From assembly GCA_030606215.1 (NCBI GenBank), contig JAUWGW010000007.1, positions 1,615 through 65,614 on the forward strand: a DNA stretch of 64,000 bases. The letters are read 5' to 3'. The notes under the pieces are model-generated. The model did no database searches. It was not told the DNA's origin and saw only the letters and a program-made list of their open reading frames with translations. The DNA is from a bacterium. Lineage in GTDB: Bacteria; NPL-UPA2; JAUVJM01. Made by a program: the position numbers and the translations under genes. Of this stretch, positions 7,897 through 59,574 are shown piece by piece (within the stretch, counting starts at the first letter, position 1; each line of letters starts with the position of its first letter).

Positions 7897-7898
7897 AA

Positions 7899-10288: not shown

Positions 10289-10334
10289 AAATGGTATCCG
10301 AAACTATCAGAAAGATTTATTGTAGGGAGGAACT

Positions 10335-11534
10335 GTGATGAGGGAACATACCTTCACGACGGTAGGAGAGGTAAAACGGAAGAAAGGAGAGATTCCAGAA
10401 ATAGGGATTGCAGTAATAGGATTCGGCTTTATGGGGAAGGCTCATCTCAATGCTTATAAGAAAATTCCTTATATCTATTGGCCTCCGGTGGTAAAGATTA
10501 ATTTAAAGAAGTTATGCGGAATTCCTGAGGAACAGGTTAAAGAGAATCAGATCAGGTATGGATTTAAAGAATACACCACTGATTGGAAAGAACTAATTAA
10601 AGATGAAGGTATTCAAGTTTTTGATAACTGTGGACCAACAAATCTACATAAAGAACCCTGCATAGAAGCAGCAAAAGCAGGTAAGAATATCTTTTGTGAA
10701 AAGCCTTTAGGGAGAAATGCAGGAGAAGCTAAGGAAATGCTGGATGCAGTTGAGAAAGTTGGGGTCAAGCATATGTGTGGGTTTAATTACCGTTTTGTTC
10801 CCGCAATCAGATTGGCGAAAGATCTGATTGAGAAAGGTGAATTAGGCCAGATTTATCATTTTAGAGCCCGTTATTTACAGGAATGGATTGCTGACCCTAA
10901 CTTTCCCTTTGTCTGGCGGTTAAGTAAGAAAGTATCCGGTAGTGGTGCTCTTGGTGATCTGGGAGCTCATTCTATAGATTTAGCAAGATTTCTCATAGGA
11001 GAACCAAAATCAGTTATGGGAATAACCAAAACATTTGTTAAGGAAAGACCAAAAGCAGAAGGTTCAAGAGAAAAGATGCCAGTTGATGTTGATGATGCAG
11101 TGGCAGTAGCTATTGAATTTGAAAATGGGGCAATAGGGACTTTAGAAGCTTCGCGTTTCTGTCCGGGTAAAAAGAGTCAGAATATATTTGAGATTAATGG
11201 TTCAAAAGGAAGTCTTTCCTGGGATATGTTACGCTTAAACGAGCTACAGTTCTATTCTACAAAAGATGAGGCTAAAGGTATAGGAGGAAGTAGAACAATT
11301 TCAGTAACAGAATCTTTCCACCCTTTTTATAAAGAATGGTGGCCACATGGTCATATCATTGGCTGGGAGCATACAACTATCCATGAAATAAAACACTTTT
11401 TAGAAGCGGTAGTTAAAGGAGAAGAGATATCTCCTTATGGAGCTACTTTTGAGGATGGTTATAAGTGTGCGGTTATCTGTGATGCTATTTTAGAATCAGC
11501 AGAAACCGGAAAAAGAATAGAAATCGGATATTGA
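10335..11534 (+). CDS. Gfo/Idh/MocA family oxidoreductase (inositol-dehydrogenase-like)
   Basis: GIAVIGFGFMGKAH Rossmann motif. CEKPLG motif. Confidence 0.8.
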   Translation: MMREHTFTTVGEVKRKKGEIPEIGIAVIGFGFMGKAHLNAYKKIPYIYWPPVVKINLKKLCGIPEEQVKENQIRYGFKEYTTDWKELIKDEGIQVFDNCGPTNLHKEPCIEAAKAGKNIFCEKPLGRNAGEAKEMLDAVEKVGVKHMCGFNYRFVPAIRLAKDLIEKGELGQIYHFRARYLQEWIADPNFPFVWRLSKKVSGSGALGDLGAHSIDLARFLIGEPKSVMGITKTFVKERPKAEGSREKMPVDVDDAVAVAIEFENGAIGTLEASRFCPGKKSQNIFEINGSKGSLSWDMLRLNELQFYSTKDEAKGIGGSRTISVTESFHPFYKEWWPHGHIIGWEHTTIHEIKHFLEAVVKGEEISPYGATFEDGYKCAVICDAILESAETGKRIEIGY

Positions 11535-12769
11535 GAATGAAATCTGAATTAAGTTCACGGGAGCGGTTATTAGGTACTATCAACAGAGAAGAAGTGGACC
11601 ATATTCCTCTTTATTGCTGGTGTTTTGGTTTTACGGCACCTAAACATTTACGCTGGAAGAAAGACGGTAAGGAAGTAGAACATTGGTATACAATGAGATT
11701 GGAACATATCCATGCCCTTCCTCAAGCCTGGGATATTTCTGATGATTTTAAAAGGGTGAAGACGTGGCTGAATTTGGGAATTGATGATATACTGGACGTT
11801 TCTTTTCCATGGAGTATTCATCCAGAGGTTAAAATAAGAGATTGGAATGAAGAAAATATTCTTTGCAGAATTTATGAGACACCAGAAGGAGAGATTCTTC
11901 AGAAAGTTAAGAAGACAGAAGAGAAAATTCCTCCCGGTTGGGTAATCCAGCCAGATAAGCCAAAATTATTTGAAGATTTCAATCTTCCGAGAAGTACAAA
12001 GTTTCCAGTTACAATGAGAGAAGACCTCTCAAAGCTAAAGTATCTATTATGCAAACCAGGTAAAAAGCAGATTGAGGATTATAAAGAAAGAATATCCCTG
12101 GTTAAAAAGTTTGCAGAAAAGAACGGAGTTTTTGTCCAGGGATGGAGTGCTTTTGGGATGGATGCTGTTATATGGCTTATGGGAGTAGAAAATGCAATTA
12201 TGGCTGCAATGACAAAACCAGAGTTTTTTCAGGAATTAGTAGATACTATTTATGATTTTGACCTGATGCGAACAGAAATGATGCTTGATTTCGGGGAAGT
12301 TGATATGATTGTACAGAGGGGATGGTATAGCTCTACTGATTTCTGGTCTCCGGAATTATTCAAAAAATATGTTCTTCCTAACTTGAAGAAACTTGTAAAA
12401 CTGGTGCATGAGAAAGGTTTAAAATTTGGTTATGTAATGACTACAGGAGTTATGGATATGCTTGAGGATTTATCTGAATCCGGAATTGATCTCTTATATT
12501 TTGTTGATCCTGAACAGGATAAACTTGATTTGAAGATCTTCAAAGAAAAATTGAATGGTAGGTTTGCAGTAGCTGGTGGCATAAATAGCAGTATTACCTT
12601 AGGTAGAGGGGAAAAAGAAGAAATAGAGAGCAAGGTGAAAGGTGCAATGGAAATTTTTGGTAAAAAAGGGTTCATTCTTTCTCCTGTAGATGCGCTTTTC
12701 CCGGATACTCCCTCGGAAAAAGTAAAGGTTATGATTGATACATGGAGAGAAATAAATGATTTCCAATGA
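11531..12769 (+). CDS. URO-D-like family protein (second copy)
   Basis: N-terminus ..RERLLGTINREEVDHIPLY.. matches the URO-D family entry motif. Weak overall. Confidence 0.4.
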   Translation: MRMKSELSSRERLLGTINREEVDHIPLYCWCFGFTAPKHLRWKKDGKEVEHWYTMRLEHIHALPQAWDISDDFKRVKTWLNLGIDDILDVSFPWSIHPEVKIRDWNEENILCRIYETPEGEILQKVKKTEEKIPPGWVIQPDKPKLFEDFNLPRSTKFPVTMREDLSKLKYLLCKPGKKQIEDYKERISLVKKFAEKNGVFVQGWSAFGMDAVIWLMGVENAIMAAMTKPEFFQELVDTIYDFDLMRTEMMLDFGEVDMIVQRGWYSSTDFWSPELFKKYVLPNLKKLVKLVHEKGLKFGYVMTTGVMDMLEDLSESGIDLLYFVDPEQDKLDLKIFKEKLNGRFAVAGGINSSITLGRGEKEEIESKVKGAMEIFGKKGFILSPVDALFPDTPSEKVKVMIDTWREINDFQ

Positions 12770-14207
12770 AAGACCAAAGGTTGGGCTCCTTTTACTCACT
12801 GCTGAATGGTTCACCCAGATAGGAGCAAGCAAAGGTTATTATAAGGAACTTCCCAAATTGATTGATGAGGATGCTATTAAAATAAATAAAATCCTGAAAG
12901 AAGAGCTAAACATAGTTAATCCAGGAATAGTAAACTCCAGGGAAAAGGTTAAGAAAGCGACAGAACTTTTTAAGAGAGAAAATATTGACCTGTTAATCAT
13001 CTGCTATCTTACCTGGGGAGAGGATAGATTAATAATTGAAGTCATAGAAAAACTCTCAGGAATCCCTATTCTTCTCTGGTGTTATTCTCCTTTTCAAAAA
13101 CTTCCTGAAACAATGAATATGCTTGACCTTTTCAGGAGTAGTGGACCTGTTGGAACAGTCCAGGCAAGTGGACCTTTAAAAAGGATGGGAAAAAGTTTCG
13201 GTTTTGCTTTTGGCTCATACAAAAACAAAGAGACTATTAGAAAAATAGTTGATTATAGCAAAGCAGCAAAATTAGCAAAAGACCTCAAGAAAGTAACTGT
13301 TGGGCTCCTGCCTTATAGATGTGATGCAATGACAGGGACGTATGTTGATGAATTCAGATTGAAGAAAGAGATTGGGCCAGAGATAAGATATATTTCAGTT
13401 AAGGAGTATTATTCAATCAGTCAGGAAATTCCCGCGAAAAAAATAGAAGAATATGTAAAAGAGCTAAAAGAGAATTACAAGATCTCTGGAGTAAATGACA
13501 GAGCTCTATTTAAAGGTGCAAGAGCCTCATTGGGATTGGCTGAAGTTGTAAATAGATTCGGATTGGATGCTTTAGCTATTCAGGATTTAGCAGAGGAACT
13601 TCATAAAACAATTGGTCTCAGGCCTTGTCTCTATGTACCTTCTCTGTTTGAAAAAGCAGTAGTAAGTATGGAAGCAGAAATAGGAGGAGCAGTTGCCCTT
13701 TTAATCTTAAAGAAACTGACTGATAAGCCACCTATGTATACAGAAATCTTTACATTTGACGAAGAAGAGAATACCATTTTAGCAGGTCATGCTGGCATCC
13801 ATGATGTAAATTTAGCGGAGAAAAGAGCTGATATAGCAATTACGCCTGATGCCGAATATATGGAAACAGAGCTTGAGACATGCTGGATGCAGTTCAGAGC
13901 TAAAGGGGGAGAAGTAACTTTACTCAGCCTATTCTGTGATGTAGATAAATTCAAAATGGTAATTTCTTCGGGAAATGCTCTGAGTGGTAAGGAAAAACTC
14001 CACGGCTCGCCTCATATCTATATTAAACTAAAAACCCCCTTAAAAGAATTTTTTGAAAAAATAGTCAAAACTGGAATGACACAGCACTGGGCAATTGTCC
14101 ATGAAAATGTGGTTAATCAATTAGAATACTTAGCTGATATCCTTAACCTGGATAAACTTATTATAGAAGAGTGGAACCTATTGAGATATCCTGGTTCAAA
14201 TAGATAA
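12756..14207 (+). CDS. L-arabinose/L-fucose isomerase family protein
   Basis: N-terminal pattern (VGLLLLTAEWF..IDLLIICYLTWG) resembles the AraA/FucI N-terminal domain. ~480 aa. Confidence 0.5.
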   Translation: MISNERPKVGLLLLTAEWFTQIGASKGYYKELPKLIDEDAIKINKILKEELNIVNPGIVNSREKVKKATELFKRENIDLLIICYLTWGEDRLIIEVIEKLSGIPILLWCYSPFQKLPETMNMLDLFRSSGPVGTVQASGPLKRMGKSFGFAFGSYKNKETIRKIVDYSKAAKLAKDLKKVTVGLLPYRCDAMTGTYVDEFRLKKEIGPEIRYISVKEYYSISQEIPAKKIEEYVKELKENYKISGVNDRALFKGARASLGLAEVVNRFGLDALAIQDLAEELHKTIGLRPCLYVPSLFEKAVVSMEAEIGGAVALLILKKLTDKPPMYTEIFTFDEEENTILAGHAGIHDVNLAEKRADIAITPDAEYMETELETCWMQFRAKGGEVTLLSLFCDVDKFKMVISSGNALSGKEKLHGSPHIYIKLKTPLKEFFEKIVKTGMTQHWAIVHENVVNQLEYLADILNLDKLIIEEWNLLRYPGSNR

Positions 14208-15585: not shown

Positions 15586-16893
15586 ATGACTCAGATTCTT
15601 TCTGCAAGACGCGGCAATATAACCCGGGAAATGAAGCGGGTGGCAAAGAATGAGAAGGCGGCACTTGATAAAATTATCCAGGGGTTAACAGATGGGACTT
15701 TAATCATACTTGCTAATAGAAACCATAAAGGAGTTACTCCCATTGGAATTGGAAAGGGGCTCAGAACCAAGGTAAATACAAATATAGGGACATCGCAGGA
15801 TAAGGTTTCTCTCAGAGAAGAACTTAAAAAGTTAAAGGTTGCAATAAAAGCGGGAACTGATACTGTGATGGACCTGAGCACAGGTGGAAATCTTGATAGA
15901 ATCAGGAGAAAAATTCTTGAGAATTGCTCTCTTCCGCTTGGAACGGTTCCGGTTTACCAAGCTGCAGTGGAGGCTGCGAGGAAGAAGAAAGCATTGGCAA
16001 ATATGGAGAAAGACGATATATTTTCTGTTATAGAGAAGCAGGTATCTGAAGGTGTAGATTTTGTAACTGTTCACTGCGGGTTGACAAGGGATGCTCTTGA
16101 ACGAATAAGGAGGGAAGGCAGGATTACGAATGTTGTAAGTCGTGGCGGGGCATTCCTCATTGAGTGGATGATATACAGGGACAAGGAAAACCCGCTTTAT
16201 GAGGATTATGACCGCCTGCTTGAAATAGCAAAGAAGTACGATGCTGTCTTGAGTCTTGGCGATGGTATGAGACCCGGGTGTATTGCTGATGCTACTGACA
16301 GAGCCCAGGTTCAGGAGTTAATCCTTCTCGGTGAACTTGCCGGGATGGCACTTGAAGCGGGAGTTCAGGTAATGATTGAGGGCCCCGGGCATATACCAGT
16401 TCATGAAATCCAGGCAAATGTCCTCCTTGAAAAATCACTCTGTCACGGCGCACCATTTTATGTGCTGGGTCCTCTTGTAACTGATATCGCACCTGGATAC
16501 GACCATATAACTTCAGCTATAGGTGGAGCAATTGCCGCGTCCAGCGGGGCTGATTTCCTCTGCTATGTAACTCCTTCGGAGCATCTTAGACTGCCAACAA
16601 CAGAAGATGTTAGGGAAGGGGTAATTGCAACGAGAATTGCCGCACATGCGGCTGATATTGCAAAAGGAGTTCCCGGAGCATTTCAAAAGGACCTTGAACT
16701 TTCAAGAATGCGCGAGAAGAGAAACTGGAGCAAACAATTAAAATTTGCTATTGACCCTGTGAGAGCACGGAGGTACAGAAGAGAGGATTTGCCTCACAAC
16801 GGAGATGTCTGCACAATGTGCGGACAGTACTGCGCTATCAAGAAAGTGGAAGCTTTCTTCCGGCAGCATAAACGAAGGAGAGTAAAGTCATAG
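15586..16893 (+). CDS. thiC: Phosphomethylpyrimidine synthase
   Basis: Full-length ThiC-like sequence including the C-terminal CxxCxxxxC cluster (CTMCGQYCA). Confidence 0.9.
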   Translation: MTQILSARRGNITREMKRVAKNEKAALDKIIQGLTDGTLIILANRNHKGVTPIGIGKGLRTKVNTNIGTSQDKVSLREELKKLKVAIKAGTDTVMDLSTGGNLDRIRRKILENCSLPLGTVPVYQAAVEAARKKKALANMEKDDIFSVIEKQVSEGVDFVTVHCGLTRDALERIRREGRITNVVSRGGAFLIEWMIYRDKENPLYEDYDRLLEIAKKYDAVLSLGDGMRPGCIADATDRAQVQELILLGELAGMALEAGVQVMIEGPGHIPVHEIQANVLLEKSLCHGAPFYVLGPLVTDIAPGYDHITSAIGGAIAASSGADFLCYVTPSEHLRLPTTEDVREGVIATRIAAHAADIAKGVPGAFQKDLELSRMREKRNWSKQLKFAIDPVRARRYRREDLPHNGDVCTMCGQYCAIKKVEAFFRQHKRRRVKS

Positions 16894-18391
16894 CAAGTAT
16901 CAGCTTGGCAAAGATATCTCCGTAGCGTGTATAGAATGTTTTTCTTGATGCGGGGGAAAGTTCTCCAATTAGAACACCAACTCTGTTATAGTCCAGATTT
17001 TTTTCTATCGTGCCTATCGGATTGATTACCCGGGACACTCCTGAATTACCTACTCTTACAAAATAGGTATGGTTCTCCACTGCGCGAAAAGTTGCAATGC
17101 TTGCATGCTGGTAGTGGGAGGTTTTACTGTGAGACCAGGCATCGTTTGTTATATTGACGAGGAAATCTGCTCCCTCATTAACAAATCTGCGTGTTAAATC
17201 TCCGAATATTCCTTCAAAACAGATTAAAACGGAAAACTTTGCGCTTTTGCGAAAATTCCCTCTTCCGGGGATTTCAAAAATTGTATACTTTTCTCCAGGT
17301 GTAAAATCTCCTGCCTCTTGAAGCAAATATTCAAGTAGTTTGCTGTGCCTCCAGAATGGGAAATATTCTCCGGCGGGGACAAGATGGATTTTATCGTACC
17401 TGCCCAGTAGTTTACTGGATGGCGAGATAAGAAAAGCGCTGTTGTAGTCTTTCCCATCACTGCTATATGGAGCACCTGTAAGTAGATACGCGTCAGTTTC
17501 CTTCAAAACCTGTTGAATCTTTCTTCTGAGCCGCTTGTCTCCCTCCTTAATCCTCCCCCCAACTGCAGTCTCGGGCCAGATTATCAAATCAGGATTTTCA
17601 AGTCCTGCTTCGAAACTGAGTGTAGTTAACTTTTCCATTATCATTGAAGAATTTTCATACCATTGGCAATCTGTGCTAAAGTTTGGCTGGATAAGAGCTA
17701 CTCTTATGGGTTCCCTATCTGTCTGAAGGGGTCTTTTTATCATCAGACTACCGTAGGAAATGCACAACCCTAATGCAATCCCAACTACTACCATGATTCT
17801 CAAAGCGCTCTTGGGTCTGTGGAAAGATTTGAAGGCGAGAGCAATGCCAGTGTTGACAAATACAATCAGGAAACTCACGCCGAATACTCCTGTGAATTCT
17901 GCCGTCTGGATAACAGGGAGAAACTTATATTGCGAGTAGCCGAGACTATTCCATGGAAATCCGAGAAAACCGAGAGACCGAATATACTCAAGAGAAGTCC
18001 ACAAGAGTGGTGCAATCCACATCAAAGCTAACGGATTTCTTCCCTTAAGAAATTTGTTTAATCCTAAACAGAAAAAAGCAGGGTAGAAAGAAAGGAGGAA
18101 AACAACAAGTGGCAAAGCCAGTGGATGGTATACGTGCGTCCAGTAGAGCGAGCCGATATTCCAGATAATTCCACATAGGTACCCGAGGAGAAAAGAGTTT
18201 CGCGGGGTTTCTCCTGCAACTCCAAGAAGTAGAGGCACAAGACAAAACCACGCGACTACTTCAAGGTTCAAAAGAGGAAAGGGAAGTATGAGAAGGATTC
18301 CTGAAAACAAAAAGGGGACGGTATAGAACCGTCCCTTTTTTTCACTCCGCATCCGCTGAAGTTGTCCCGGTGATGGTGACAGGTGTGCCAA
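16838..18391 (-). CDS. lnt: Apolipoprotein N-acyltransferase
   Basis: N-terminal polytopic membrane domain plus C-terminal CN-hydrolase domain. 517 aa. Confidence 0.8.
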   Translation of the reverse strand: MAHLSPSPGQLQRMRSEKKGRFYTVPFLFSGILLILPFPLLNLEVVAWFCLVPLLLGVAGETPRNSFLLGYLCGIIWNIGSLYWTHVYHPLALPLVVFLLSFYPAFFCLGLNKFLKGRNPLALMWIAPLLWTSLEYIRSLGFLGFPWNSLGYSQYKFLPVIQTAEFTGVFGVSFLIVFVNTGIALAFKSFHRPKSALRIMVVVGIALGLCISYGSLMIKRPLQTDREPIRVALIQPNFSTDCQWYENSSMIMEKLTTLSFEAGLENPDLIIWPETAVGGRIKEGDKRLRRKIQQVLKETDAYLLTGAPYSSDGKDYNSAFLISPSSKLLGRYDKIHLVPAGEYFPFWRHSKLLEYLLQEAGDFTPGEKYTIFEIPGRGNFRKSAKFSVLICFEGIFGDLTRRFVNEGADFLVNITNDAWSHSKTSHYQHASIATFRAVENHTYFVRVGNSGVSRVINPIGTIEKNLDYNRVGVLIGELSPASRKTFYTRYGDIFAKLILAMTLLSFVYAAGRKLPLS

Positions 18392-19529
18392 CAGGTACGA
18401 GCTTATATAACTCTTCTACATCTCTGTTGTACAATCGGATACAACCGCGCGAGGAATGTTCCCCAACAGTCTCCGGTTGTGTTGTTCCATGAATCCCGTA
18501 GCCAAGTTTATCCAGTCCCATCCAGCATACTCCAAGTATGTTCTTTGGGTGTCCATAAGGATAAATACCATCTTCAGCGTACCATACAGGTTTCAACTGT
18601 TTGTTGACAATCTTGAATGTGCCGGTTGGTGTGCTTCCGAATTTACCTGTTCCGATGGGATATTCTTTGAAGAATCTCCCATTCAACTTAAGAGTCAGTT
18701 TATTTGAATCCGCATCCACATAAATTTCAAAATTCCCGGGAGTAATTTTCAATCTTTTCCCAAATGAGAGTATTACCCCTTTAAGCCTGTTCGCTTGTTT
18801 TATGAGAGCAACGGTGGTGTTAAACTCTTTAGCAATTTTCTCAAGTGTATCACCTTTTTTCACTTCATATATTATGCTGTCTCCTGTGGTTATAGGTGAG
18901 AAAATCAGTTTTATGTCCATAGCTCCAAGTTTTTCTTTTGCTTTTTCAACAATCGGATTTTCTGGATAGGACAGAAGCACTTCTTCATACCTTTTCCTTG
19001 CATCCTCCCATTTTTTGAGTTGCTGGAGGCAGTTCCCGGAACTTACCAGGACTTCAGGAATTACATCAGAATCTCCAAATTCAGATAGTATCCTGTTGTA
19101 GGAACTAATAGCTTTATCATACTCTCCCGCAATTTCTTCTAAGTGTGTGAGCTCATATAAACTTGCAGGATAATATTCACTGTCAGGTTTACCACTGATG
19201 ACTTTCTTCCACAAAACCTTTGCTTTTGAAGGAGCCCCGAGATTATTCAAACAGACTCCACGCAGATAGGCAATCGTCCTCTTGTGAAAACGTGGGTATT
19301 CTTTTGAGGTTTTTTCAAAAATATCGAGTGCGTCTTCAAATTTCTTTTCAGAATAGAGGGATTTCCCTTTTTCAAATCTCTCTTCAACTTTCCTCCCAAT
19401 GGCAATCCTGAGAAAGCTCCCTGCCACAATACCAGCAACAATTAAAAGAACCAGTATTCGTTCCGCCCTTCTGCCTGTGGTGCGTTTTTTCACTTGTTGT
19501 TTAGTAGATTTACCCTTTCTCTTTGCCAA
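18342..19529 (-). CDS. L,D-transpeptidase (YkuD domain) with N-terminal TM anchor, TPR repeats and a LysM domain
   Basis: YkuD catalytic motif HGT..SRGCIRL. LysM (YEVKKGDTLEKIAKEF). TPR-like repeats. Confidence 0.75.
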   Translation of the reverse strand: MAKRKGKSTKQQVKKRTTGRRAERILVLLIVAGIVAGSFLRIAIGRKVEERFEKGKSLYSEKKFEDALDIFEKTSKEYPRFHKRTIAYLRGVCLNNLGAPSKAKVLWKKVISGKPDSEYYPASLYELTHLEEIAGEYDKAISSYNRILSEFGDSDVIPEVLVSSGNCLQQLKKWEDARKRYEEVLLSYPENPIVEKAKEKLGAMDIKLIFSPITTGDSIIYEVKKGDTLEKIAKEFNTTVALIKQANRLKGVILSFGKRLKITPGNFEIYVDADSNKLTLKLNGRFFKEYPIGTGKFGSTPTGTFKIVNKQLKPVWYAEDGIYPYGHPKNILGVCWMGLDKLGYGIHGTTQPETVGEHSSRGCIRLYNRDVEELYKLVPVGTPVTITGTTSADAE

Positions 19530-20283
19530 TTTGCCTCCTCCTTATAGCGTAAATGCACACGCAACTGAATACTATGGTGGCACCTGCCACAACCTGTGTC
19601 CATGGCATTTTCATATTCCATAAATACATGGAATCTGCCCGGAAAAATTCTATTCCAGACCTGAGTACTGAATACATAATAGCATACAGCAAAAAAATGG
19701 AGCCGTCAGCCATTTTTTTCATTCTCAGTCTGTAAAGCAGAAGGAAGATTGAGAGATTTCCCACTATTTCATAAAGCTGTGTTGGGTGTAAAGGGACATT
19801 TACCGGAGCCATTGATTGAGGATTTCTGAATATGACTGCCCACGGAAGAGTGGTTTCCTTCCCGAAACAACAACCATTAAGAAAACATCCAACTCTCCCT
19901 ATAGCTTGTGCCAGGATGATGGCAGGGGCTCCTGCATCAGCAAATTTCCAGAAGGGAATACCCCTCCTCTTTGTAAACCATATTCCTGCGAGGAATCCTC
20001 CAAGAATTCCTCCATGAAAAGCGAGCCCTCCCTGCCATATTTTAACAATATCCAGGGGATGTTCCAGGAAACAATCAATGTGCAGAATTACATAATATAA
20101 TCTGGCTCCGAGAATGCCGCTTATGATTGCAAGAGAAGCAAAATCAATCATACATTCAGAACCGAGTCCTTTCCTCCTGGTTTCATTCTTTGCCAGATAA
20201 ATAGCGATGAGGAAAGCAGTCGCTATCATCACGCCATAGAGGCGAATTGTAATTGGACCAAGTTTAAGAAGAACTGGATACAT
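19510..20283 (-). CDS. lgt: Prolipoprotein diacylglyceryl transferase
   Basis: Lgt-like N-terminus and a conserved G-rich loop (GGLAFHGGILGG). Confidence 0.85.
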   Translation of the reverse strand: MYPVLLKLGPITIRLYGVMIATAFLIAIYLAKNETRRKGLGSECMIDFASLAIISGILGARLYYVILHIDCFLEHPLDIVKIWQGGLAFHGGILGGFLAGIWFTKRRGIPFWKFADAGAPAIILAQAIGRVGCFLNGCCFGKETTLPWAVIFRNPQSMAPVNVPLHPTQLYEIVGNLSIFLLLYRLRMKKMADGSIFLLYAIMYSVLRSGIEFFRADSMYLWNMKMPWTQVVAGATIVFSCVCIYAIRRRQIGKEKG

Positions 20284-21094
20284 TTTCTCTCACAATGAGA
20301 ACTTTTGCAGGGCATTTCTCCACTGCTTTTGCAATCTTCTCCATATTATCTGAATGGATATGCGGGAGATTACCATCCATTGTAATTGCCTGAGGTGCGA
20401 CCTTTGCACATATCCCACAGCCGAAACAACCGACATTACAGATTTCCCTCACATCTTTCCCTCTATCTTTTGAAACGCATGCCACATACGCTTTTGTCTC
20501 TCTTGGAATAAGCTGAATGATATTTCCTGGACATACTTTCACGCAGAGCCCACATCCCGTGCATGCATCCTCATCCACGACAGGCAAGCAATTCTCATCC
20601 ATTTTAAGCGCACCAAAAGGGCAGGCATCAACACATGACCCAAACCCTAAACATCCATATGGACATCTCTTACCGCCACCCTGGAGGAGAGAGGCGGCAA
20701 GACAATTATTAATCCCTTGATAGATAAATTTTTCTTCTACTTTGTTCTTTCCTCCTCTGCAGCAGACTACAGCTACCTGTGGCACGGATTCTTCCAATTC
20801 GGCTCCCATTACTTCGGCTAATTTCATGTTGACCTCATTCCCGCCGGCAATACAGGCGTTTACAGGCGCTTTCCCGCTCACTACTGCAGCTGCATAAGCC
20901 TGACATCCCGGAAATCCACATGCGCCACAATTTGTTCCGGGAAGTACTTGCATCACTTCTTCTTCATGTCTGTCCACTGCGACGCCAAACTTCTTCGCTG
21001 CAATACCAAGACCTATCCCGAGAATTAACCCGATACCCGCAAGACTTAGAATTGCCAGAAATGCAGTCATCTTTCCCTCAGTAGTTTGGCACAT
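20264..21094 (-). CDS. rnfB: Rnf complex subunit B (Fe-S)
   Basis: N-terminal TM helix, CGACGFPGC cluster motif and two 4Fe-4S ferredoxin motifs. Confidence 0.8.
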   Translation of the reverse strand: MCQTTEGKMTAFLAILSLAGIGLILGIGLGIAAKKFGVAVDRHEEEVMQVLPGTNCGACGFPGCQAYAAAVVSGKAPVNACIAGGNEVNMKLAEVMGAELEESVPQVAVVCCRGGKNKVEEKFIYQGINNCLAASLLQGGGKRCPYGCLGFGSCVDACPFGALKMDENCLPVVDEDACTGCGLCVKVCPGNIIQLIPRETKAYVACVSKDRGKDVREICNVGCFGCGICAKVAPQAITMDGNLPHIHSDNMEKIAKAVEKCPAKVLIVRENVSSSS

Positions 21095-21795
21095 ATAGTT
21101 ACCATATGAACCCAGAGACTGCTTCTATTAGTAATCAGTCTGGCAGAATGCAGGTTTCGTAGAAATTCTTGAGGAGTATTGAAACTGTTTAGCTCCACAT
21201 ATGCCCTTCCTACCTCAGAGTTTAAATGAGCATCACTTCCTACCACCATGGCAAATCCATTCTCTCGTGCTAAGCTCAATGCTTTTTGGTTGTCTTTTAC
21301 ATATATATTTCTTGAGTTAAATACTTCTATAATATCTACTCTTTTTACCTCGTCCTTGTGCGCAAGAGCGGGGTTTATGAGCCTCTCCAGAGCATCCTTC
21401 TTTATCTTAGATTTCCTAAAAGAGCCAAAAGGATGAGGGATTCCAACCAGCCCCCCTTGAACTTTTATCCGCTCAATAGTTTCCTCCAGAGGCAGTTGCG
21501 GAGGGATTGCCTCCTCCAGGAAATAACCCATAATTTCCCCTTCCTGAGTGTCAATTTCTTCCCCTACAATCACCTTGAAATCAGGAGGAGCTAATTTCTT
21601 TAATGCCAGAGCTCCCTCAATAGTATTATGGTCGGTAATGGCTACTCCGGTCAGCCCTCTTTTAGCACAAGTTGAAATTATGGCTTTTTCTGACAGGAGA
21701 CTATCCGGGGAATAACGAGTATGGACATGCATATCTATCTTAAGCATAAGTTGTACTTTCACCAATATAATATTATCCCTGCTGTTATCGCCCAC
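21067..21795 (-). CDS. PHP-domain metal-dependent phosphoesterase
   Basis: MHVHTRYSPDS.. and ..DHNT.. PHP motifs. Confidence 0.6.
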   Translation of the reverse strand: MGDNSRDNIILVKVQLMLKIDMHVHTRYSPDSLLSEKAIISTCAKRGLTGVAITDHNTIEGALALKKLAPPDFKVIVGEEIDTQEGEIMGYFLEEAIPPQLPLEETIERIKVQGGLVGIPHPFGSFRKSKIKKDALERLINPALAHKDEVKRVDIIEVFNSRNIYVKDNQKALSLARENGFAMVVGSDAHLNSEVGRAYVELNSFNTPQEFLRNLHSARLITNRSSLWVHMVTICAKLLRER

Positions 21796-22637
21796 AAAAT
21801 GATATCAATCATCAAAGGCTTATCTGTAACTAAAATATCTTCCGGCTTTCCGCCTGTTCCCTTTTGGTGAATGAGATACAGGTATCTGAAAATGCCATAC
21901 AGGACAAAAGGAACGGTAAACACAAGGTTCCTGGTGCCAAACTTTCCTATTGTTTTTTCAGACATGGTATACAGGGCATAAGCCACCACAGTTGAAGCAG
22001 TAACTACTGAGATCATCTGATCTAACAGATAAGAACTATATTCCGCCAGAACCTGTCTATGATTTTGTGCTCCCCCCTCCAGCTCTACCACTTCATATCT
22101 TCTCTTACTCAATCCTAAGAAGAGAGAGAGAAGAATTGTGCAGATTATTAGCCAGGAGGAAATCTCTACATTAATGACCACTGCGCCAGCCACAACCCTG
22201 AGTACAAAACCACAGGCAATAGTGAAAACATCTAAAATGACTATGCGCTTCAGTAGAAAAGAGTAGGCTAATTGGAGTAGGAAATAAGCCAGAGTAACCA
22301 GGAAAAAAGACGGGCTTAAGTAATAGGACGCTGCTAACAAAGGAGGTATTAAAATTGTCAGAGTGAGCACAGCATGGGAAATTTTAAGCCTTCCTGAAGC
22401 AATTGGTCTATGAGATTTATCCGGATGGCGTCTGTCCTGTTTTAAATCAGAAAGGTCGTTGAGAATGTAGATTGAGCCGGAAAGAAGGCAGAAAATAAAA
22501 AATGCAAATGTTACTTTGAAGAGCAAGGGGAAATTGAAAATGTTTTGAGAAAACAAAATTCCGGCGAAGATGAAGAGGTTCTTCGTCCACTGTTTAGGAC
22601 GAAGGCTTTCCCATACACAGACAAGAAAATTCATCAT
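21759..22637 (-). CDS. UbiA-family prenyltransferase, decaprenyl-phosphate phosphoribosyltransferase (DPPR synthase)-like
   Basis: NDLSDLKQDRRHPDKSHRPIASG motif (NDxxDxxxDRxHPxKxxRPIAsG signature of DPPR-synthase-like UbiA members). ~8 TM helices. Confidence 0.7.
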   Translation of the reverse strand: MMNFLVCVWESLRPKQWTKNLFIFAGILFSQNIFNFPLLFKVTFAFFIFCLLSGSIYILNDLSDLKQDRRHPDKSHRPIASGRLKISHAVLTLTILIPPLLAASYYLSPSFFLVTLAYFLLQLAYSFLLKRIVILDVFTIACGFVLRVVAGAVVINVEISSWLIICTILLSLFLGLSKRRYEVVELEGGAQNHRQVLAEYSSYLLDQMISVVTASTVVAYALYTMSEKTIGKFGTRNLVFTVPFVLYGIFRYLYLIHQKGTGGKPEDILVTDKPLMIDIILWAITAGIILYW

Positions 22638-22653
22638 TCTCTCCTAATGTAAA

Positions 22654-22696
22654 CCAGTGAACCGTGTGTCATTCTGAACGAAGTGAAGAATCTCAT
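22654..22696. repeat. GTCATTCTGA-family intergenic repeat (copy 1), between the epimerase stop and the UbiA start
   Basis: ccagtgaaccgtgtgtcattctgaacgaagtgaagaatctcat; extended similarity to copy 3. Confidence 0.5.
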
Positions 22697-23727
22697 AGGA
22701 ATTTTTTAAACAATGTCAGTATCCCCTGTTTCCATGGGACGCGATGTGTAACACCTGACCCCGTAATCTCATGAGTGTGCTCAAGATAGTGTCTATACGA
22801 TCTTATCAAAGATTCTGCATTGCTATACCGTGGTGTCCAGCCGAGTATTCTTTCAGCTTTCTCTATTGAAACAAAGGAATCCTTATCTGCGGTTCCATAA
22901 ACCCATTTATAGAGGGGCGAAACTCTAATTATCCAGAACAGTTCAAGTAAAGGCTTTACGACCCAGGAAGGCACAGGAAAAACATGAGCGCCGGTTTTAG
23001 CATAGTCACACAACGCTCCAACATCTTCCAATACAGTACCAAATTCTTTAGCTCCTGCATTGAAGGTATCGTTAACCTTTTCTTCCGGCAGTGTCATCAT
23101 TAAATAAACCGCATCCACTAAATCGTCAACCTCCAACAATTGATAGCGATTTTTCCCACTCCCTATAATCGGAATTTTTTTCCCACTCCTGACCCAATCA
23201 TACAGAATCTGGAATACACCGAGCCTGCCCATCCCGATGAAAGTTTTTGGCCGAACTACAGGGATGCACAACCCCTTCTGCCTGTATTCTTCGCATATCT
23301 TTTCCGCCTCAATCTTACTTTCTCCGTATGGGCCTACCCCAACAAGCGGGTCATTTTCGTAAATAGGGTGTTTCTCAGGGACGCCGTATACAGCAGTTGA
23401 AGATATAAGAACAACTCTCTTTATACCATTCTTTACAGCAGATTCAAAGACACATCTTGTGCCTCCGACATTTGTGCTGAAGATGTCTTTTTTCTTCCAC
23501 AATGGTAAAGCTGCTGCAGTATGTATAACAACATCTGCATTTGCAAGTATTTTATCCAGAGATTCAAAGTCCCGAACATCAGTGTTGAAATACTTAATAT
23601 TATCAGGATATTCCGCAGGGTCTATTGGCGCAATATCAATAACAAGAATCTCATCAAACTTCTCAGCAAACCTGTTACACAGGTGAAAACCTAAAAATCC
23701 TGCTCCTCCAGTTACAGCAAGCTTCAA
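22693..23727 (-). CDS. NAD-dependent epimerase/dehydratase (extended SDR)
   Basis: VTGGAGFLG Rossmann motif. YxxxK region. Confidence 0.75.
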   Translation of the reverse strand: MKLAVTGGAGFLGFHLCNRFAEKFDEILVIDIAPIDPAEYPDNIKYFNTDVRDFESLDKILANADVVIHTAAALPLWKKKDIFSTNVGGTRCVFESAVKNGIKRVVLISSTAVYGVPEKHPIYENDPLVGVGPYGESKIEAEKICEEYRQKGLCIPVVRPKTFIGMGRLGVFQILYDWVRSGKKIPIIGSGKNRYQLLEVDDLVDAVYLMMTLPEEKVNDTFNAGAKEFGTVLEDVGALCDYAKTGAHVFPVPSWVVKPLLELFWIIRVSPLYKWVYGTADKDSFVSIEKAERILGWTPRYSNAESLIRSYRHYLEHTHEITGSGVTHRVPWKQGILTLFKKFL

Positions 23728-23748
23728 GATAAATCCTCCTCATGATTT

Positions 23749-24351
23749 TTAATGTGGCACAATGCCTGCAAATCCGAAGAATGCCATGGACATAAGTCCT
23801 GCAGTTATGAAAGCGATTGCTGCCCCCTTAAAACTTTCAGGAACATTGGCAAGTTCAAGTCTTTCCCTGATACCTGACATTAGGAGCATTGCAATTGTAA
23901 ATCCAACCCCTGCTCCAAACCCGTGAACAACACTTTTCAGGAAGCTTAGCTCGGCCACCTCTCCGTTGTGGAAGAACATATTTATATTTAAAACAGCAAC
24001 GCCCAGGACCGCACAGTTTGTTGTAATAAGCGGCAGGTAGATTCCAAGCGCTCTGTAAAGCGCAGGACTCAGTTTCTGAATTACAATCTCTACAAACTGA
24101 ACGAAACTTGCTATTACAAGGATAAATGCAATGGTCCTCAAGAATTCAAGATTGTATGGAAGAAGAATATAACGGTATACAAGCCATGTTACAGAAGATG
24201 CAAGAGTCATTACAAATATGACAGCCATCCCCATACCGATTGCCGGCTCAGTCCTTTTTGATACACCAATATATGGACAGAGTCCCAGGAATCTTGAAAG
24301 GACGAAATTGTTGACGAAAACTGCGCTGACAAATATTAAGACAATCTCCAT
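23749..24351 (-). CDS. rnfA: Rnf complex subunit A
   Basis: ~200 aa polytopic protein of the Rnf-Nqr family, in the D-G-E-A gene order. Confidence 0.8.
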
Positions 24352-24371
24352 CCTATCTCCTTCGCTGGCAT

Positions 24372-24956
24372 TTATCTCTTTCTCTTCATCTGTTTAAGTG
24401 CAAGAATAAACCCTATTGTGAGAAAAGCTCCTGGAGGAAGGAGCATAAGAGCAACCGGCTCAAATTCGGTTGATATGCTCACCCCAAAAATCTTCCCCGA
24501 GCCCAGTGCTTCCCTTATAATTGAAATAATGAGCAAGCCTGCCGTAAATCCAAAACCCATACCCAGCCCGTCCACAACTGCTCTCGCAGGAGAATTTCTT
24601 GAAGCAAATGCTTCTGCCCTTCCAAGAATTATGCAGTTAACGACAATCAGCGGGATGAATATACCAAGCTGCCTGTTTAGCTCTGGTAAATAGGCAGAAA
24701 GTATACGTTCCACAATTACTACAAATGTGGCGATGATGATAATGAAACACGGAATCCTCATTCTTTGAGGGAAAAGTTTCCTCGTGATAGAGATTGTCAG
24801 GTTTGATGAAACAAGCACAAAGGTTGTTGCAATTCCCATCCCGAGACCATTCGCGAATGAAGTTGAAACAGCCAATGTCGGACACAAGCCAAGCATCAGC
24901 ACAAATACAGGATTTTCTTTGAATAGCCCTTTTAAAAATTCTCTCAACATATTCAT
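24372..24956 (-). CDS. rnfE: Rnf complex subunit E (start taken at MNMLREF; the ORF-track extension to 25004 runs over an intergenic repeat)
   Basis: Rnf-Nqr family membrane protein adjacent to rnfA. Confidence 0.8.
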
Positions 24957-24968
24957 AACACCGTATTT

Positions 24969-25004
24969 GTCATTGCGAGGAGTGGAGCGACGAAGCAATC
25001 TCAT
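24969..25004. repeat. GTCATT..GA..GAAG.AATCTCAT-family repeat (copy 2), between the rnfG stop and the rnfE start
   Basis: gtcattgcgaggagtggagcgacgaagcaatctcat. Confidence 0.45.
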
Positions 25005-25605
25005 CTATTTTCTCTCTCACAGAATCAATAACAGCCTTTGAGGAAATTGTTGCGCCGGTAATTGCCTCCATCTTCTCTGTGTGCAGGTCCTCTGACTTTT
25101 TCCCGGCAAATTGTTTTTGGAACCATGGTTTTTTATCCACTCTTACTTTCTTCACATCTCTCCGGAAAATATCCCTGATGGTTTTGCCTGAAGGAACTTC
25201 CTCAATTCTTGCTCCAAGACCTGGGGTTTCCTGCTGGCTCAGGATTTTAAGTCCTGTAATTTCCCCCTCGGGAGTTATACCGACCATAGTCCTTATAGTA
25301 CTGCTGTAACCTTTCCCCTCAGCAATAAAGGCTATTCCCACTATCTTTTCTCTATCTCCGGATTCATACCCGATGTAATAAAAGATGTCCCGCTTTTTCA
25401 CAGGCTCAAAGACTTTTGCAGTCGGAAGAACCTCAAGCAGGGCTTTCTGCTTTTCCTCCTCCAGGACTTTCTTCCTTCTCTCCTCAGTAACATTATAAAC
25501 AATGGCAAGTGAACCTGCTGAAAATGCCGCTACAACCATCAATATAATTCCAAACCTCACTATGTCACGCATTTCCATATCTTCTCGGCTTGGCATACCT
25601 ATCAA
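24970..25605 (-). CDS. rnfG: Rnf complex subunit G (FMN-binding)
   Basis: N-terminal TM helix plus FMN-binding domain with the TGATISS motif. Confidence 0.75.
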   Translation of the reverse strand: MIGMPSREDMEMRDIVRFGIILMVVAAFSAGSLAIVYNVTEERRKKVLEEEKQKALLEVLPTAKVFEPVKKRDIFYYIGYESGDREKIVGIAFIAEGKGYSSTIRTMVGITPEGEITGLKILSQQETPGLGARIEEVPSGKTIRDIFRRDVKKVRVDKKPWFQKQFAGKKSEDLHTEKMEAITGATISSKAVIDSVREKIDEIASSLHSSQ

Positions 25606-26599
25606 TCATAGGAGTAGCCGCATTCATCAGAAGAATTGCAAATGAAACTCCTTCAGGATAACCTGCATACAGACGGATTATAGCGGTGAGGAACCCGCAT
25701 CCGAGTCCGAAGATAATTTTCCCTTCGCCAGTCATTGGGGATGTTACCATATCAGTAGCCATGAAAAATGCTCCGAGAATTGCTCCTCCTGAAAAAATGT
25801 GAAAAAGAACATTTCCGTGGAAAGGTTTGCTTGCTCCAGGAATCCAGAGGAGCCATGCAAAAACTGCTAAACTCCCGAGGAAACTTAAAGGAATATGCCA
25901 GCTAATTATACCCTTTACGAGGAGAAAGATTGCTCCAATAATGAGGAGCAAAGCGGCAGTTTCTCCAATGCATCCCCCAATATTACCTGTAAATAGTCTA
26001 AGTAAAGTATCCGAAGAATGCAAATCATTGAGGTGCTGAGAAGCTAATACTTTTACATTTTCCGCTGCATTTGGGTCAGAAAGCGTACGGTTTGCATCAA
26101 GCCATGCGGTTAGAGGAGTTGCTGACGTAATTCCATCTATTGAAATAATTCCAGCTCTCGGGGTTGCCCATCCTGTCGTCATATATCTACTGTAGGAAAG
26201 AAGAAGAAAAACCCGTCCACCGAGTGCAGGATTGAATATATTATGCCCAAGCCCTCCAAATGTCTGTTTCACAACACTGATAGCAAAGGCTGAGCCAAGA
26301 GCAGGCAGCCATAACGGTATATCCTGCGGTAGATTCAACGCAAGGAGTAAACCTGTAAGAAAAGCGCTCCCATCAGAAATTGCAACTGGCTTCTTCCTTA
26401 ACCATAAAATAATTGCTTCGGTGATGATAGCTGAAAGTATACTTACGCCGATAATTTGAAGCACCTTAACTCCAAAGAAATAAACTGCTCCGACTATAGC
26501 CGGAAGGAGTGCCAGAGACACTGACCACATAATCTTATTAACTGTTACCCCGGAACTCAAATGCGGGGCAGGGGATACAATGAACTTCTGCTCTCTCAC
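25565..26599 (-). CDS. rnfD: Rnf complex subunit D
   Basis: NqrB/RnfD-family polytopic protein, with the conserved Thr near the C-terminus (..DMVTSP..). Confidence 0.8.
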   Translation of the reverse strand: MREQKFIVSPAPHLSSGVTVNKIMWSVSLALLPAIVGAVYFFGVKVLQIIGVSILSAIITEAIILWLRKKPVAISDGSAFLTGLLLALNLPQDIPLWLPALGSAFAISVVKQTFGGLGHNIFNPALGGRVFLLLSYSRYMTTGWATPRAGIISIDGITSATPLTAWLDANRTLSDPNAAENVKVLASQHLNDLHSSDTLLRLFTGNIGGCIGETAALLLIIGAIFLLVKGIISWHIPLSFLGSLAVFAWLLWIPGASKPFHGNVLFHIFSGGAILGAFFMATDMVTSPMTGEGKIIFGLGCGFLTAIIRLYAGYPEGVSFAILLMNAATPMIDRYAKPRRYGNA

Positions 26600-26721
26600 A
26601 GGAGACTCCTTATTCGGCAGAATAAGCTTTGGAATTCTAATATAGTAGAATATACTCTCCTGCCAGCCTGGTCAAGACAAAAAAGGTTGCATTGGATGAG
26701 GGGAAGTTGTAATCTACCAAT

Positions 26722-27741
26722 ATGAATAAACTGAGGCATATAACATCACTCTCCAGAGTTTTTCTAAACTATAAAAGAGGGAAAACTTGCCTCCGCTCAC
26801 TTCCAATCAGACTCTGGATAGAAACATCAAGTATCTGCAACTTGAGGTGTGTTATGTGTTTGAACAGAGCTCTTCCCAAGAGTGAGAAAGGACTTATGGA
26901 TTTTGGTTTATTCAGAAAAATTATAGATGAGGCAAAATCTTATGTCTATGACGTTTACCTGCATCATCGCGGCGAATCGTTAATTCATCCGGAGTTTCCA
27001 GAGATGATTGAGTATGCTAAGAAATCAGGTCTCAGAGTGAAGTTCCACACAAATGGAACACTTATGACCCCGGAGCTTTCGCTAAAAATACTTGAGGCAG
27101 GTCCTGACCTTGTTTCCTTCTCAGTAGATGGATTTACGAAGGAAGTTTATGAAAAGATCAGAGTGGGTGCAAATTTTGTTGGAACAGTTAATAATATTTC
27201 TTATTTTCTAAAATTAAAAAGGGAGAAGGGTTTAAATAAACCATATACGATAATTGAGGAGATTGAGTTTCCTGAGGTTATTGCTTCTTCTTATGAAGAT
27301 AGGAAGAAGTTTACGGAATATTTCAGGAAACTGGGGCTTGATGAAATAATCTTTAAAAAACTTTACAACTGGGCAGGTTACCTTGGCGAACCGAGTGGTG
27401 AGAGAACATATACAACGTGCACATTTTTGTGGTATTCCTGCGTGATTTTCTGGGATGGAACTGTTTCACCATGCCCGCAGGATTATTACGGGAAGATAAA
27501 GCTCGGGAATATCAAACATAATTCTCTGAGAGAGATATGGAATGGTACAGAGTATGTATCGCTCAGAAAACAGATGCTGAGGGATGTTGAAAAGCTTATC
27601 CCCTGTAATAAATGCGACAGACTCTGCAGGAAGAAAATAGCAGGCATCCCTTTCCAATATCTTATCTCCTACCTGAATGATAACATCATTGGTTACGGGA
27701 AACTGAGGAAAATATTCGGCTCCTATGAGAGAAATGAGTAG
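26722..27741 (+). CDS. Radical SAM protein with C-terminal SPASM-like Cys-rich domain
   Basis: CNLRCVMC (CxxxCxxC). Downstream cysteine clusters (..SPCPQDYYG.., CNKCDRLC). Confidence 0.75.
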   Translation: MNKLRHITSLSRVFLNYKRGKTCLRSLPIRLWIETSSICNLRCVMCLNRALPKSEKGLMDFGLFRKIIDEAKSYVYDVYLHHRGESLIHPEFPEMIEYAKKSGLRVKFHTNGTLMTPELSLKILEAGPDLVSFSVDGFTKEVYEKIRVGANFVGTVNNISYFLKLKREKGLNKPYTIIEEIEFPEVIASSYEDRKKFTEYFRKLGLDEIIFKKLYNWAGYLGEPSGERTYTTCTFLWYSCVIFWDGTVSPCPQDYYGKIKLGNIKHNSLREIWNGTEYVSLRKQMLRDVEKLIPCNKCDRLCRKKIAGIPFQYLISYLNDNIIGYGKLRKIFGSYERNE

Positions 27742-28453
27742 AAAAGTTAAATCAGTGTTGAAACAGCAGAAGATAAAAATGATTCTTTCATACATCGGCG
27801 ATACTTCAGAAAAAAAATGTCTTGATATCGGAAGTGGCAGTGGAATTATCAGTCTTATCCTTCGGGAGAATGGTGGTGATTGGGCAAGCGCTGAGACGGA
27901 AGGAGAAGGCATGGATTCTATCAGGAAGGCAGTTGGAGAAAATGTTTATAAAATAGATGGTCAGTCTACTCCTTTTGGAGAAAGAAGTTTTGATATAGTT
28001 GTAATAGTTGATTTTCTTGAACACATTGATACTGATAGAGAATTTGTCGTAGAACTTTACCGGATAATGAAATATGGAGGGATTCTCATCATAAATGTGC
28101 CGCATCTCAGGAGATGTGCGCCCATCCCGGCGCTTCGTAATCTGATAGGACTAACCGATGAGAAACATGGGCATGTGCGCCCGGGGTATACACTTACGAT
28201 GCTAAAGAATTTGCTTGGTAAGGAATTTGAGATAGTGAGACACTCAGTGTATGTAAAGTTTTTTTCTGAACTCATTGAAACTGTAATTAATTTTGCGGGT
28301 AAAGGTGAGAAGAGGGAAGAGGTAACTGAAAAAGGACTTACGTTCAGGCTATATTCAATAATATATCCTTTCCTTTGCTTAATTTCAAAACTTGATTATC
28401 TCTTTTTTTTCACAAGAGGCGCGCGTTTGATTGTAGAAGCAAGGAAATGCTAG
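27725..28453 (+). CDS. Class I SAM-dependent methyltransferase
   Basis: LDIGSGSGII motif I. Acidic motif II. Confidence 0.7.
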   Translation: MREMSRKVKSVLKQQKIKMILSYIGDTSEKKCLDIGSGSGIISLILRENGGDWASAETEGEGMDSIRKAVGENVYKIDGQSTPFGERSFDIVVIVDFLEHIDTDREFVVELYRIMKYGGILIINVPHLRRCAPIPALRNLIGLTDEKHGHVRPGYTLTMLKNLLGKEFEIVRHSVYVKFFSELIETVINFAGKGEKREEVTEKGLTFRLYSIIYPFLCLISKLDYLFFFTRGARLIVEARKC

Positions 28454-40704: not shown

Positions 40705-40722
40705 ATTGTATATGATTCCGCG

Positions 40723-59102: not shown

Positions 59103-59112
59103 CAGCTTTGTT

Positions 59113-59139: not shown

Positions 59140-59156
59140 TAGAGGAGGGAAAAATT

Positions 59157-59573: not shown

Positions 59574-59574
59574 T

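Follow-up and report, generated by a model that had tools for sequence, protein, structure and literature searches.

An rnf operon lacking rnfC, with an epimerase–UbiA–PHP cassette inserted between rnfA and rnfB

Gene organization of the rnf locus

The window analyzed here is a stretch of 64,000 nucleotides (nt) of contig JAUWGW010000007.1 (assembly GCA_030606215.1; positions 1,615–65,614, forward strand), and it contains an atypical locus for the Rnf complex. In window coordinates, the interval 20264–26599 on the minus strand extends exactly from the stop codon of rnfB to the start codon of rnfD. The genes on this strand follow in the order rnfD, rnfG, rnfE, rnfA, an epimerase of the short-chain dehydrogenase/reductase (SDR) type, a UbiA-type phosphoribosyltransferase, a PHP phosphoesterase, rnfB, lgt, a LysM/YkuD gene and lnt. 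Families were assigned with Pfam and NCBIfam models, scored against their cutoffs, and by alignment to solved structures. By these means, all eight gene assignments of a preliminary description, made from the sequence alone, hold, and so does the arrangement it reported, that is, D-G-E-A followed by three other genes and then by rnfB. The genes are listed below, with lengths in amino acids (aa).

25565–26599, minus strand: rnfD, the first gene of the operon (344 aa); TIGR01946 score 342.8 against a cutoff of 207; PF03116 is the only Pfam match
24970–25578, minus strand: rnfG, periplasmic subunit binding flavin mononucleotide (FMN); TIGR01947 score 108 against 102; PF04205; flavinylation motif TGATISS; start taken from the gene call in L002, a second assembly described below
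24372–25004, minus strand: rnfE, with two conserved cysteines; TIGR01948 score 243.8 against 213.4
23749–24351, minus strand: rnfA, with two conserved cysteines; TAA stop at 23751–23749; TIGR01943 score 277.9 against 229.3
22693–23727, minus strand: first gene of the inserted cassette, an extended SDR epimerase/dehydratase-family protein; TTG start; motifs TGGAGFLG and YGESK; PF01370 (7e-39)
21759–22637, minus strand: UbiA-family polyprenyl-phosphate phosphoribosyltransferase of the decaprenyl-phospho-ribose-5-phosphate (DPPR) synthase type; NF008977 score 306.5 against 234
21067–21747, minus strand: PHP-family metal phosphoesterase; its TGA stop overlaps the ATG of rnfB
20264–21070, minus strand: rnfB, with an N-terminal membrane helix, FeS (PF04060) and Fer4/polyferredoxin domains and about 21–22 cysteines
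16838–20283, minus strand: lgt, LysM/YkuD L,D-transpeptidase and lnt, co-directional with rnfB, with overlaps or short gaps

The true start of rnfB is at 21070 (ATGACTGCATTT, identical in the relative denoted L090), not at 21094, and the stop codon of the PHP gene overlaps it as ATGA.

A conventional Rnf core under purifying selection

The products of the rnf genes closely resemble those of characterized Rnf complexes. RnfD contains the covalent-FMN threonine motif DGITSATPL, which is conserved across the lineage (defined here as the window and its closer relatives, with 56–100% RnfD identity, which were found by protein search followed by comparison of the contigs), as well as a conserved N-terminal arm, KFIVSPAPHLSS. 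Residues 6–343 of this protein align with residues 7–308 of 7ZC6_D, and the protein also aligns with 9ERI_D (E-values from 3e-76 to 6e-78). RnfB aligns over its full length with 7ZC6_B of Clostridium tetanomorphum (E 9e-67) and with 9ERI_B; it passes the cutoff of TIGR01944 and scores 245.7 with NF005503, slightly below the cutoff of 252. All the open reading frames (ORFs) of the rnf genes are intact, and the flavinylation threonines of RnfD and RnfG, the cysteine pairs of RnfA and RnfE expected for the intramembrane Fe-S center and the cysteines of RnfB are all in place. Judging from these sequence features, the pump looks intact, with a conventional Rnf membrane core (RnfD, G, E and A) and the ferredoxin-side RnfB. 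In comparison with the Rnf complexes of C. tetanomorphum and Acetobacterium woodii (7ZC6, 9ERI), the locus encodes full-length homologs of RnfD, G, E, A and B, with the same flavinylation threonines, RnfA/RnfE cysteine pairs, long polyferredoxin RnfB and N- and C-terminal arms of RnfD that hold RnfC; it differs in that there is no rnfC in the operon or in the 64 kb, rnfB is located 2.7 kb away from rnfA, and the operon continues into lgt, ykuD and lnt.

The Na+-translocating complex NQR (NqrABCDEF) shares with Rnf a homologous core (NqrB/RnfD, NqrC/RnfG, NqrD/RnfE and NqrE/RnfA), and the preliminary description allowed that the D, G, E and A genes might encode Nqr subunits, with nqrA or nqrF nearby. 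This identity is rejected, given that all Nqr equivalog models scored below their cutoffs and the Rnf models for D, G, E and A scored above theirs. The window encodes no NqrA-like protein, RnfB stands in place of NqrF, and no NqrF-type domain was detected among the window ORFs scanned. The alignment of NqrB with RnfD begins at NqrB residue 124, and the match to the NqrB profile sets in only at about position 120; RnfD thus lacks the NqrB-type N-terminal extension, including the two extra helices that build the quinone site of NqrB (review PMC12174285).

With rnfC missing and rnfB displaced, the rnf genes could be imagined as a decaying remnant, or the arrangement as an assembly chimera. However, along with the intact frames and cofactor motifs, the ratio of nonsynonymous to synonymous substitution rates (dN/dS) is 0.05–0.21 for every rnf gene in comparisons of the window with two relatives (L090 and L083), indicating purifying selection and leading us to reject pseudogenization. 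Furthermore, an independent Logan assembly (L002) is identical to the window at the protein level over the radical SAM gene, rnfDGEA and the epimerase; the junction of the PHP gene and rnfB lies outside the L002 contig. Because of the purifying selection and the independent assembly, decay or artefact appears highly improbable, the least credible of the explanations considered here.

Absence of rnfC from the operon is a lineage trait

When the RsxC protein of Escherichia coli was compared with the six-frame translation of the window, only two weak matches to ferredoxin domains were obtained (E 0.017 and 0.035), which indicates that the window encodes no RnfC. An RnfC from candidate division KSB1 (from L094, see below), used as the query, also produced no match, either in the window or across the lineage loci, which together span about 150 kb. 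The absence of rnfC from the operon and the window, as originally described, is thus borne out by both searches. Confirmed as well is the presence of a divergent radical SAM gene upstream of rnfD, a radical SAM/SPASM gene that starts 122 bp away:

26600–26721, between divergent genes: 122-bp intergenic region separating rnfD from the radical SAM/SPASM gene, with no room for rnfC and no rnfC remnant

This region is likely to contain the promoter. Promoter-like hexamers at 26675–26639 (minus strand) were not enriched over shuffled sequence, and the scan for promoters and terminators was neutral as to a single transcript.

The synteny check in relatives that the preliminary description proposed was run, and the rnfD-first operon without rnfC was found to recur across the lineage. 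The related loci are as follows (RnfD identity to the window, then gene order):

L090, 86%: rnfDGEAB-lgt
L102, 85%: rnfDGEA, followed by a pair of unrelated small genes
L083, 78%: rnfDGEAB-lgt-ykuD-lnt
L089, 76%: operon starts at rnfD
L091, 72%: rnfDGEAB-lgt-ykuD-lnt
L086, 61%: rnfDGEAB-lgt-ykuD-lnt
L092, 56%: rnfDGEA-lgt-ykuD-lnt, without rnfB

In all five loci where at least 10 kb upstream is visible (the window, L083, L086, L089 and L092), the operon starts at rnfD and rnfC is missing, and the genes upstream of rnfD differ among all five. An operon without rnfC is characteristic of the lineage, and this gene order is stable over the range of 56–100% RnfD identity. The nearest outgroup, L094 (RnfD 55%), has the order rnfC-D-G-E-A, and its RnfC groups with candidate division KSB1; taken together with the lineage loci, this dates the loss of rnfC from the operon to the base of the lineage.

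A broader view of the variability of rnf operons comes from a species-level genome scan by RnfD that yielded at least 80 loci with 45–54% RnfD identity; the counts that follow refer to the 80 listed. The rnfC gene is located upstream of rnfD in 76 of these, directly in most of them and behind 0.5–2 kb of inserted genes in six; among the other four, three contigs end at or near rnfD, and one locus, L020, has no rnfC. Split rnf operons are common: rnfB is not adjacent in about 20 of the 80 loci, the KSB1 outgroup included, and in one locus an SDR gene intervenes between rnfE and rnfA.

Several of these loci display peculiarities of their own. L020 (JAUXEQ010000050.1, 2070–6906; RnfD 50%) belongs to a more distant lineage and has the order rnfD-G-E-A-B, with divergent genes upstream of rnfD instead of rnfC. 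Three outgroup lineages, one of them Zixiibacteriota, share a conserved co-directional ORF pair between rnfC and rnfD (L024:4174–5441, L029:8691–9949 and L038:8644–9899); the predicted proteins, about 200 and 230 aa long, match no Pfam family, possess signal-peptide-like N-termini, show 39–67% identity between loci, and may be accessory envelope partners of Rnf. A variant gene order, rnfC-G-D-E-A-B, with rnfG before rnfD, is found in L040 (Planctomycetales) and L049 (Omnitrophota); in L041, rnfD precedes rnfG as usual, and about 1.1 kb separates it from rnfC.

Conservation of the RnfC-binding surfaces

In the structure 7ZC6, the N-terminal stretch of RnfD, about 20 residues long, is "completely buried inside RnfC", the C-terminal arm of RnfD lies on the RnfC surface, and RnfB residues 91–140 form the interface with RnfC (PMC9588780). 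The RnfD of the window aligns with 7ZC6_D from residue 6 and so includes the arm that is buried in RnfC. Within the lineage, the identity of this N-terminal arm is 0.60–0.70, compared to 0.66 for the whole protein; the respective values for outgroups with linked rnfC are 0.46–0.53 and 0.55. The RnfB segment that contacts RnfC shows the same pattern, with identities of 0.57 against 0.61 for the whole protein in the lineage, and 0.40 against 0.46 in the rnfC-linked outgroups. Thus, on the level of sequence conservation, the surfaces that hold RnfC appear to be under no relaxed constraint. The unrelaxed RnfD arm and RnfB segment, together with the frequent splitting of rnf operons, favor the view that rnfC is encoded elsewhere in the genome and that this is a normal Rnf, which we consider probable. 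The RnfC protein, the NAD(H)-binding subunit with FMN and two [4Fe-4S] clusters, would then be made from another genomic site and dock on RnfD and RnfB as in the solved complexes. For the lineage as a whole, splitting of the operon is the most likely reason for the absence of rnfC, ahead of a complex of a new type.

Several points weigh against this interpretation. The rnfC gene was not recovered for the lineage in the window and the related loci, and a search with the outgroup RnfC is uninformative with regard to an orphan RnfC of the lineage because the best 120 matches all came from KSB1 or Calditrichaeota, at identities of at least 59%. The conserved RnfD arm and RnfB segment could also be maintained by a different partner, or by contacts with RnfB alone. 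Moreover, the rnfDGEA genes of L092 are accompanied by neither rnfB nor rnfC nearby, so that the core may have other partners.

The main alternative is that the lineage truly lost RnfC, and RnfDGEA(B) passes electrons from ferredoxin to an acceptor other than NAD+, such as a cytoplasmic partner docking on RnfD, a periplasmic acceptor reduced by the RnfG flavin, or a membrane quinone. In this case, the core would serve as an ion pump driven by ferredoxin, or as an electron conduit across the membrane, with the flavins of RnfD and RnfG as the exit point. Such a loss would fit the absence of rnfC from every locus of the lineage, the stability of this trait and the additional lack of rnfB in L092. 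There is also a precedent of sorts in the partial NQR/RNF-like flavinylation-associated systems, which have incomplete gene sets and have been proposed to function as one-way transmembrane electron carriers (Meheust et al. 2021, PMC8238504). The likeness to these systems consists in the incomplete set of Rnf/Nqr genes; in them, however, RnfD/NqrB is fused to an NqrF-like NAD-binding domain (PF00175), whereas here RnfD is unfused, there is no NqrF-like fusion, and RnfA, E, G and B are present. Output to quinone, in particular, is unlikely because RnfD lacks the two N-terminal quinone-site helices of NqrB (PMC12174285). Nor does the unrelaxed constraint on the surfaces buried by RnfC agree with its loss; no conserved candidate for a replacement gene is found beside the operon, and the loci seen amount to a small part of any genome of the lineage. 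A literature search found no description of an RnfC-less Rnf or of rnfDGEAB-type operons. On balance, we regard a genuine loss of RnfC as unlikely, although far from negligible.

If rnfC is simply located elsewhere, the locus demonstrates the plasticity of rnf operons in uncultured bacteria, and calls for caution with pathway callers that expect the six genes side by side or score such an Rnf as incomplete. If, on the contrary, the lineage lacks RnfC, this would be a new electron output for Rnf/Nqr pumps, a third type beside those of Rnf (NAD+) and Nqr (quinone), and important for anaerobic bioenergetics; the evidence leans against this possibility.

An organism-specific insertion between rnfA and rnfB

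Comparison with L090 delineates the insertion to the nucleotide:

21071–23746, minus strand: organism-specific insertion of 2,676 bp, beginning 2 nt past the rnfA stop and ending at the rnfB ATG; junction compared with L090

The L090 junction reads ...CCACATTAA-AA-ATGACTGCATTTCTGGCAATT, and the window retains identical flanks with the 2,676 bp in between. The uninterrupted junction, rnfA TAA-aa-ATG rnfB, is found in L090, L083, L091 and L086. At its 5' end, the insert has the ribosome-binding site GAGGAGG and the TTG start of the epimerase, and at its 3' end, the TGA of the PHP gene that overlaps the ATG of rnfB. A repeat search detected no target-site duplication, terminal inverted repeats or flanking direct or inverted repeats at the borders of the insert. 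The GC content of the insert is 41.4%, compared to 43% in the flanks.

Members of the lineage differ in what follows rnfA, with rnfB directly abutting it in some, the cassette intervening in the window and other genes present in L102, whereas L092 has no rnfB at all. In L102 (3150–4306), a promoter-like TTGACA/TAGAAT pair comes after rnfA, and the place of rnfB is taken by two small unknown genes, one of which encodes a secreted protein. The 3' junction of rnfA appears to be a rearrangement hot spot.

History of the cassette

The three inserted genes were originally described as unrelated, which does not hold: the trio encoding the epimerase (344 aa), the UbiA protein (295 aa) and the PHP protein (214 aa) is a conserved cassette that is present also in L097, L098 and L099, in contexts without rnf genes. 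Homology among the cassette copies extends from the start codon of the epimerase to near the PHP stop. The epimerase shares 79–84% identity with its orthologs in the L097 and L099 cassettes, and the PHP gene is always located beside the UbiA gene.

The divergence of the cassette can be gauged against that of the rnf genes given that L097 and L083 share one ENA sample. Between L097 and the window, the synonymous divergence (dS) of the cassette genes is 1.5–2.1 and the protein identity is 68–79%; for the rnf genes of L083, the respective values are 1.1–2.3 and 61–82%. Likewise, the cassette divergence of L099 matches the divergence of L090 (dS about 0.6). The cassette has diverged to the same extent as the rnf genes and, therefore, looks vertically inherited. 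Horizontal acquisition of the cassette was rejected on the grounds of this match and of the similarity of its GC content to that of the flanks.

Two genes elsewhere in the window are orthologs of genes next to the L097 cassette:

54255–54794, minus strand: comEA-like gene, ortholog of the gene just downstream of the cassette in L097 (E 8e-85)
59157–59573, plus strand: gene for a 138-aa protein of unknown function, ortholog of the gene immediately downstream of the L097 cassette (E 1e-52)

The comEA-like ortholog marks the probable former neighborhood of the cassette. Most simply, the cassette would have relocated within the genome, over about 33 kb, to the rnfA|rnfB spacer once the organism had diverged from the relative with 86% RnfD identity.

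Operon capture versus functional coupling

The preliminary description left a choice between functional coupling of the insert to Rnf and simple operon capture. Coupling would mean that the position of the cassette is selected, for example, because glycolipid synthesis needs the reducing power of Rnf or its ion gradient. The tight junctions, with the ribosome-binding site on one side and the ATGA overlap with rnfB on the other, are compatible with such a link; furthermore, rnf genes already share the operon with lgt, ykuD and lnt, which are envelope genes, and a lipopolysaccharide (LPS)/O-antigen cluster adjoins it. However, the arrangement is found in this organism only: the relatives with RnfD identities of 86%, 78%, 72% and 61% have no insert, and L102, at 85%, has different genes at this position. 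In addition, the three cassette genes have stayed together in at least two other settings that include no rnf genes, and the rnfA|rnfB junction varies within the lineage. Because the arrangement is unique to one organism, functional coupling is not supported, and we consider it very unlikely; it is the operon-capture option that is borne out.

Taken together, these observations are best accounted for by the combination of a functional, conventional Rnf, an rnfC gene located elsewhere, and a captured, pre-existing cassette that is uncoupled from Rnf, and we hold this joint explanation to be the likelier one, with appreciable room for doubt. Under this scenario, rnfDGEA, the cassette, rnfB, lgt, ykuD and lnt would form one long envelope-associated operon. 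The cassette would be a pre-existing unit native to the lineage, which a clean event not involving a transposon carried over about 33 kb to the 2 nt that separate rnfA from rnfB; after the move, it would have acquired the strong ribosome-binding site on the 5' side and the ATGA overlap with rnfB on the 3' side. The insertion would then represent operon capture without functional coupling to Rnf. A reservation is that co-transcription of the operon is predicted from gene spacing only. The insert provides a clean, datable example of a whole functional cassette spliced at a stop/start junction with no hallmarks of mobile elements.

Predicted function of the cassette

The UbiA protein scores above the cutoff of NF008977, the equivalog model for decaprenyl-phosphate phosphoribosyltransferase, and its residues 3–288 align with the DPPR synthase of Mycobacterium tuberculosis, Rv3806c (8J8J, E 4e-39). 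In mycobacteria, Rv3806c makes decaprenyl-phospho-ribose-5-phosphate from phosphoribosyl pyrophosphate (PRPP), Rv3807c removes the 5'-phosphate, and DprE1/E2 epimerize the product to the arabinose donor; in the Citrobacter O-antigen pathway, pentofuranose side chains are added in the periplasm by a homologous synthase acting with a phosphatase module, a flippase, a GT-C enzyme and, optionally, an SDR epimerase (PMC11127046). By analogy, the cassette probably makes a polyprenyl-phosphate pentofuranose donor for envelope glycans, and the PHP protein would be a candidate 5'-phosphatase for the lipid-linked ribose-5-phosphate.

Compared to the characterized pentofuranose donor pathways, that is, the mycobacterial decaprenyl-phospho-arabinose (DPA) pathway and that of Citrobacter youngae (Kelly et al. 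2024, PMC11127046), the cassette shares the PRPP-dependent UbiA-type phosphoribosyltransferase, a phosphoesterase and an SDR epimerase (TGxxGxxG and YxxxK motifs) encoded alongside, and the LPS/O-antigen gene setting. The differences count against the prediction. The known pathways employ a PAP2 phosphatase or the "PRP" module, together with DprE1/E2 or a different SDR, whereas here there are a PHP-family phosphatase and a single SDR, the roles of which are assigned by analogy; the PHP protein matches PDB structures only weakly and belongs to a family unrelated to the known phosphatases of these pathways. Furthermore, no flippase or GT-C glycosyltransferase adjoins the cassette.

In L099, the cassette is preceded by a gene for a 774-aa multi-pass protein. 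In the window, a series of genes in one direction at 56619–63082 encodes a DUF2079 membrane protein (827 aa, 56619–59102), the 138-aa protein of unknown function, a GT2 enzyme, a 565-aa protein of unknown function and an LPG_synthase_TM protein; these genes adjoin the orthologs of the former neighbors of the cassette and may represent periplasmic glycosylation machinery that uses the lipid-linked donor of the cassette.

Genomic neighborhood

The genes lgt, TPR-LysM-YkuD L,D-transpeptidase and lnt trail the rnf genes in every member of the lineage for which the contig is long enough (L083, L086, L091 and L092). This linkage, which joins an energy-conserving complex to genes for the maturation of lipoproteins and peptidoglycan, is kept even in L092, without rnfB, and is far more conserved than the cassette insertion. 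Outside the lineage, partial echoes are seen in L080, where lgt comes after rnfB, and in L072, where a YkuD gene occupies that place.

Farther upstream of rnfD, there is a large LPS core/O-antigen cluster that encodes LpxK, an acyltransferase, MsbA, GT9 heptosyltransferases, Wzy_C, Wzm/Wzt and GT1 enzymes. Two paralogous pairs, each consisting of a radical SAM/SPASM gene and a class I methyltransferase gene, are located in or beside this cluster, at 26722–28453 (plus strand) and 39811–41583 (minus strand); the former pair is not found at the same position in L083.

Two other groups of genes in the window deserve mention. At 44255–45819 (minus strand), a gene for the sulfur-incorporation enzyme of homocysteine biosynthesis (PF01837, 524 bits) is followed by one for a NIL-domain 2x[4Fe-4S] ferredoxin, a pathway typical of strict anaerobes and methanogens. 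At 5677–14207 (plus strand), a cluster encoding a GH42 beta-galactosidase, two URO-D-like proteins, a DegT aminotransferase, a GFO/IDH/MocA oxidoreductase and an arabinose-isomerase-like protein adjoins genes for a split transketolase, a PfkB kinase and inositol-phosphate synthase, and looks like an unusual sugar-handling locus.

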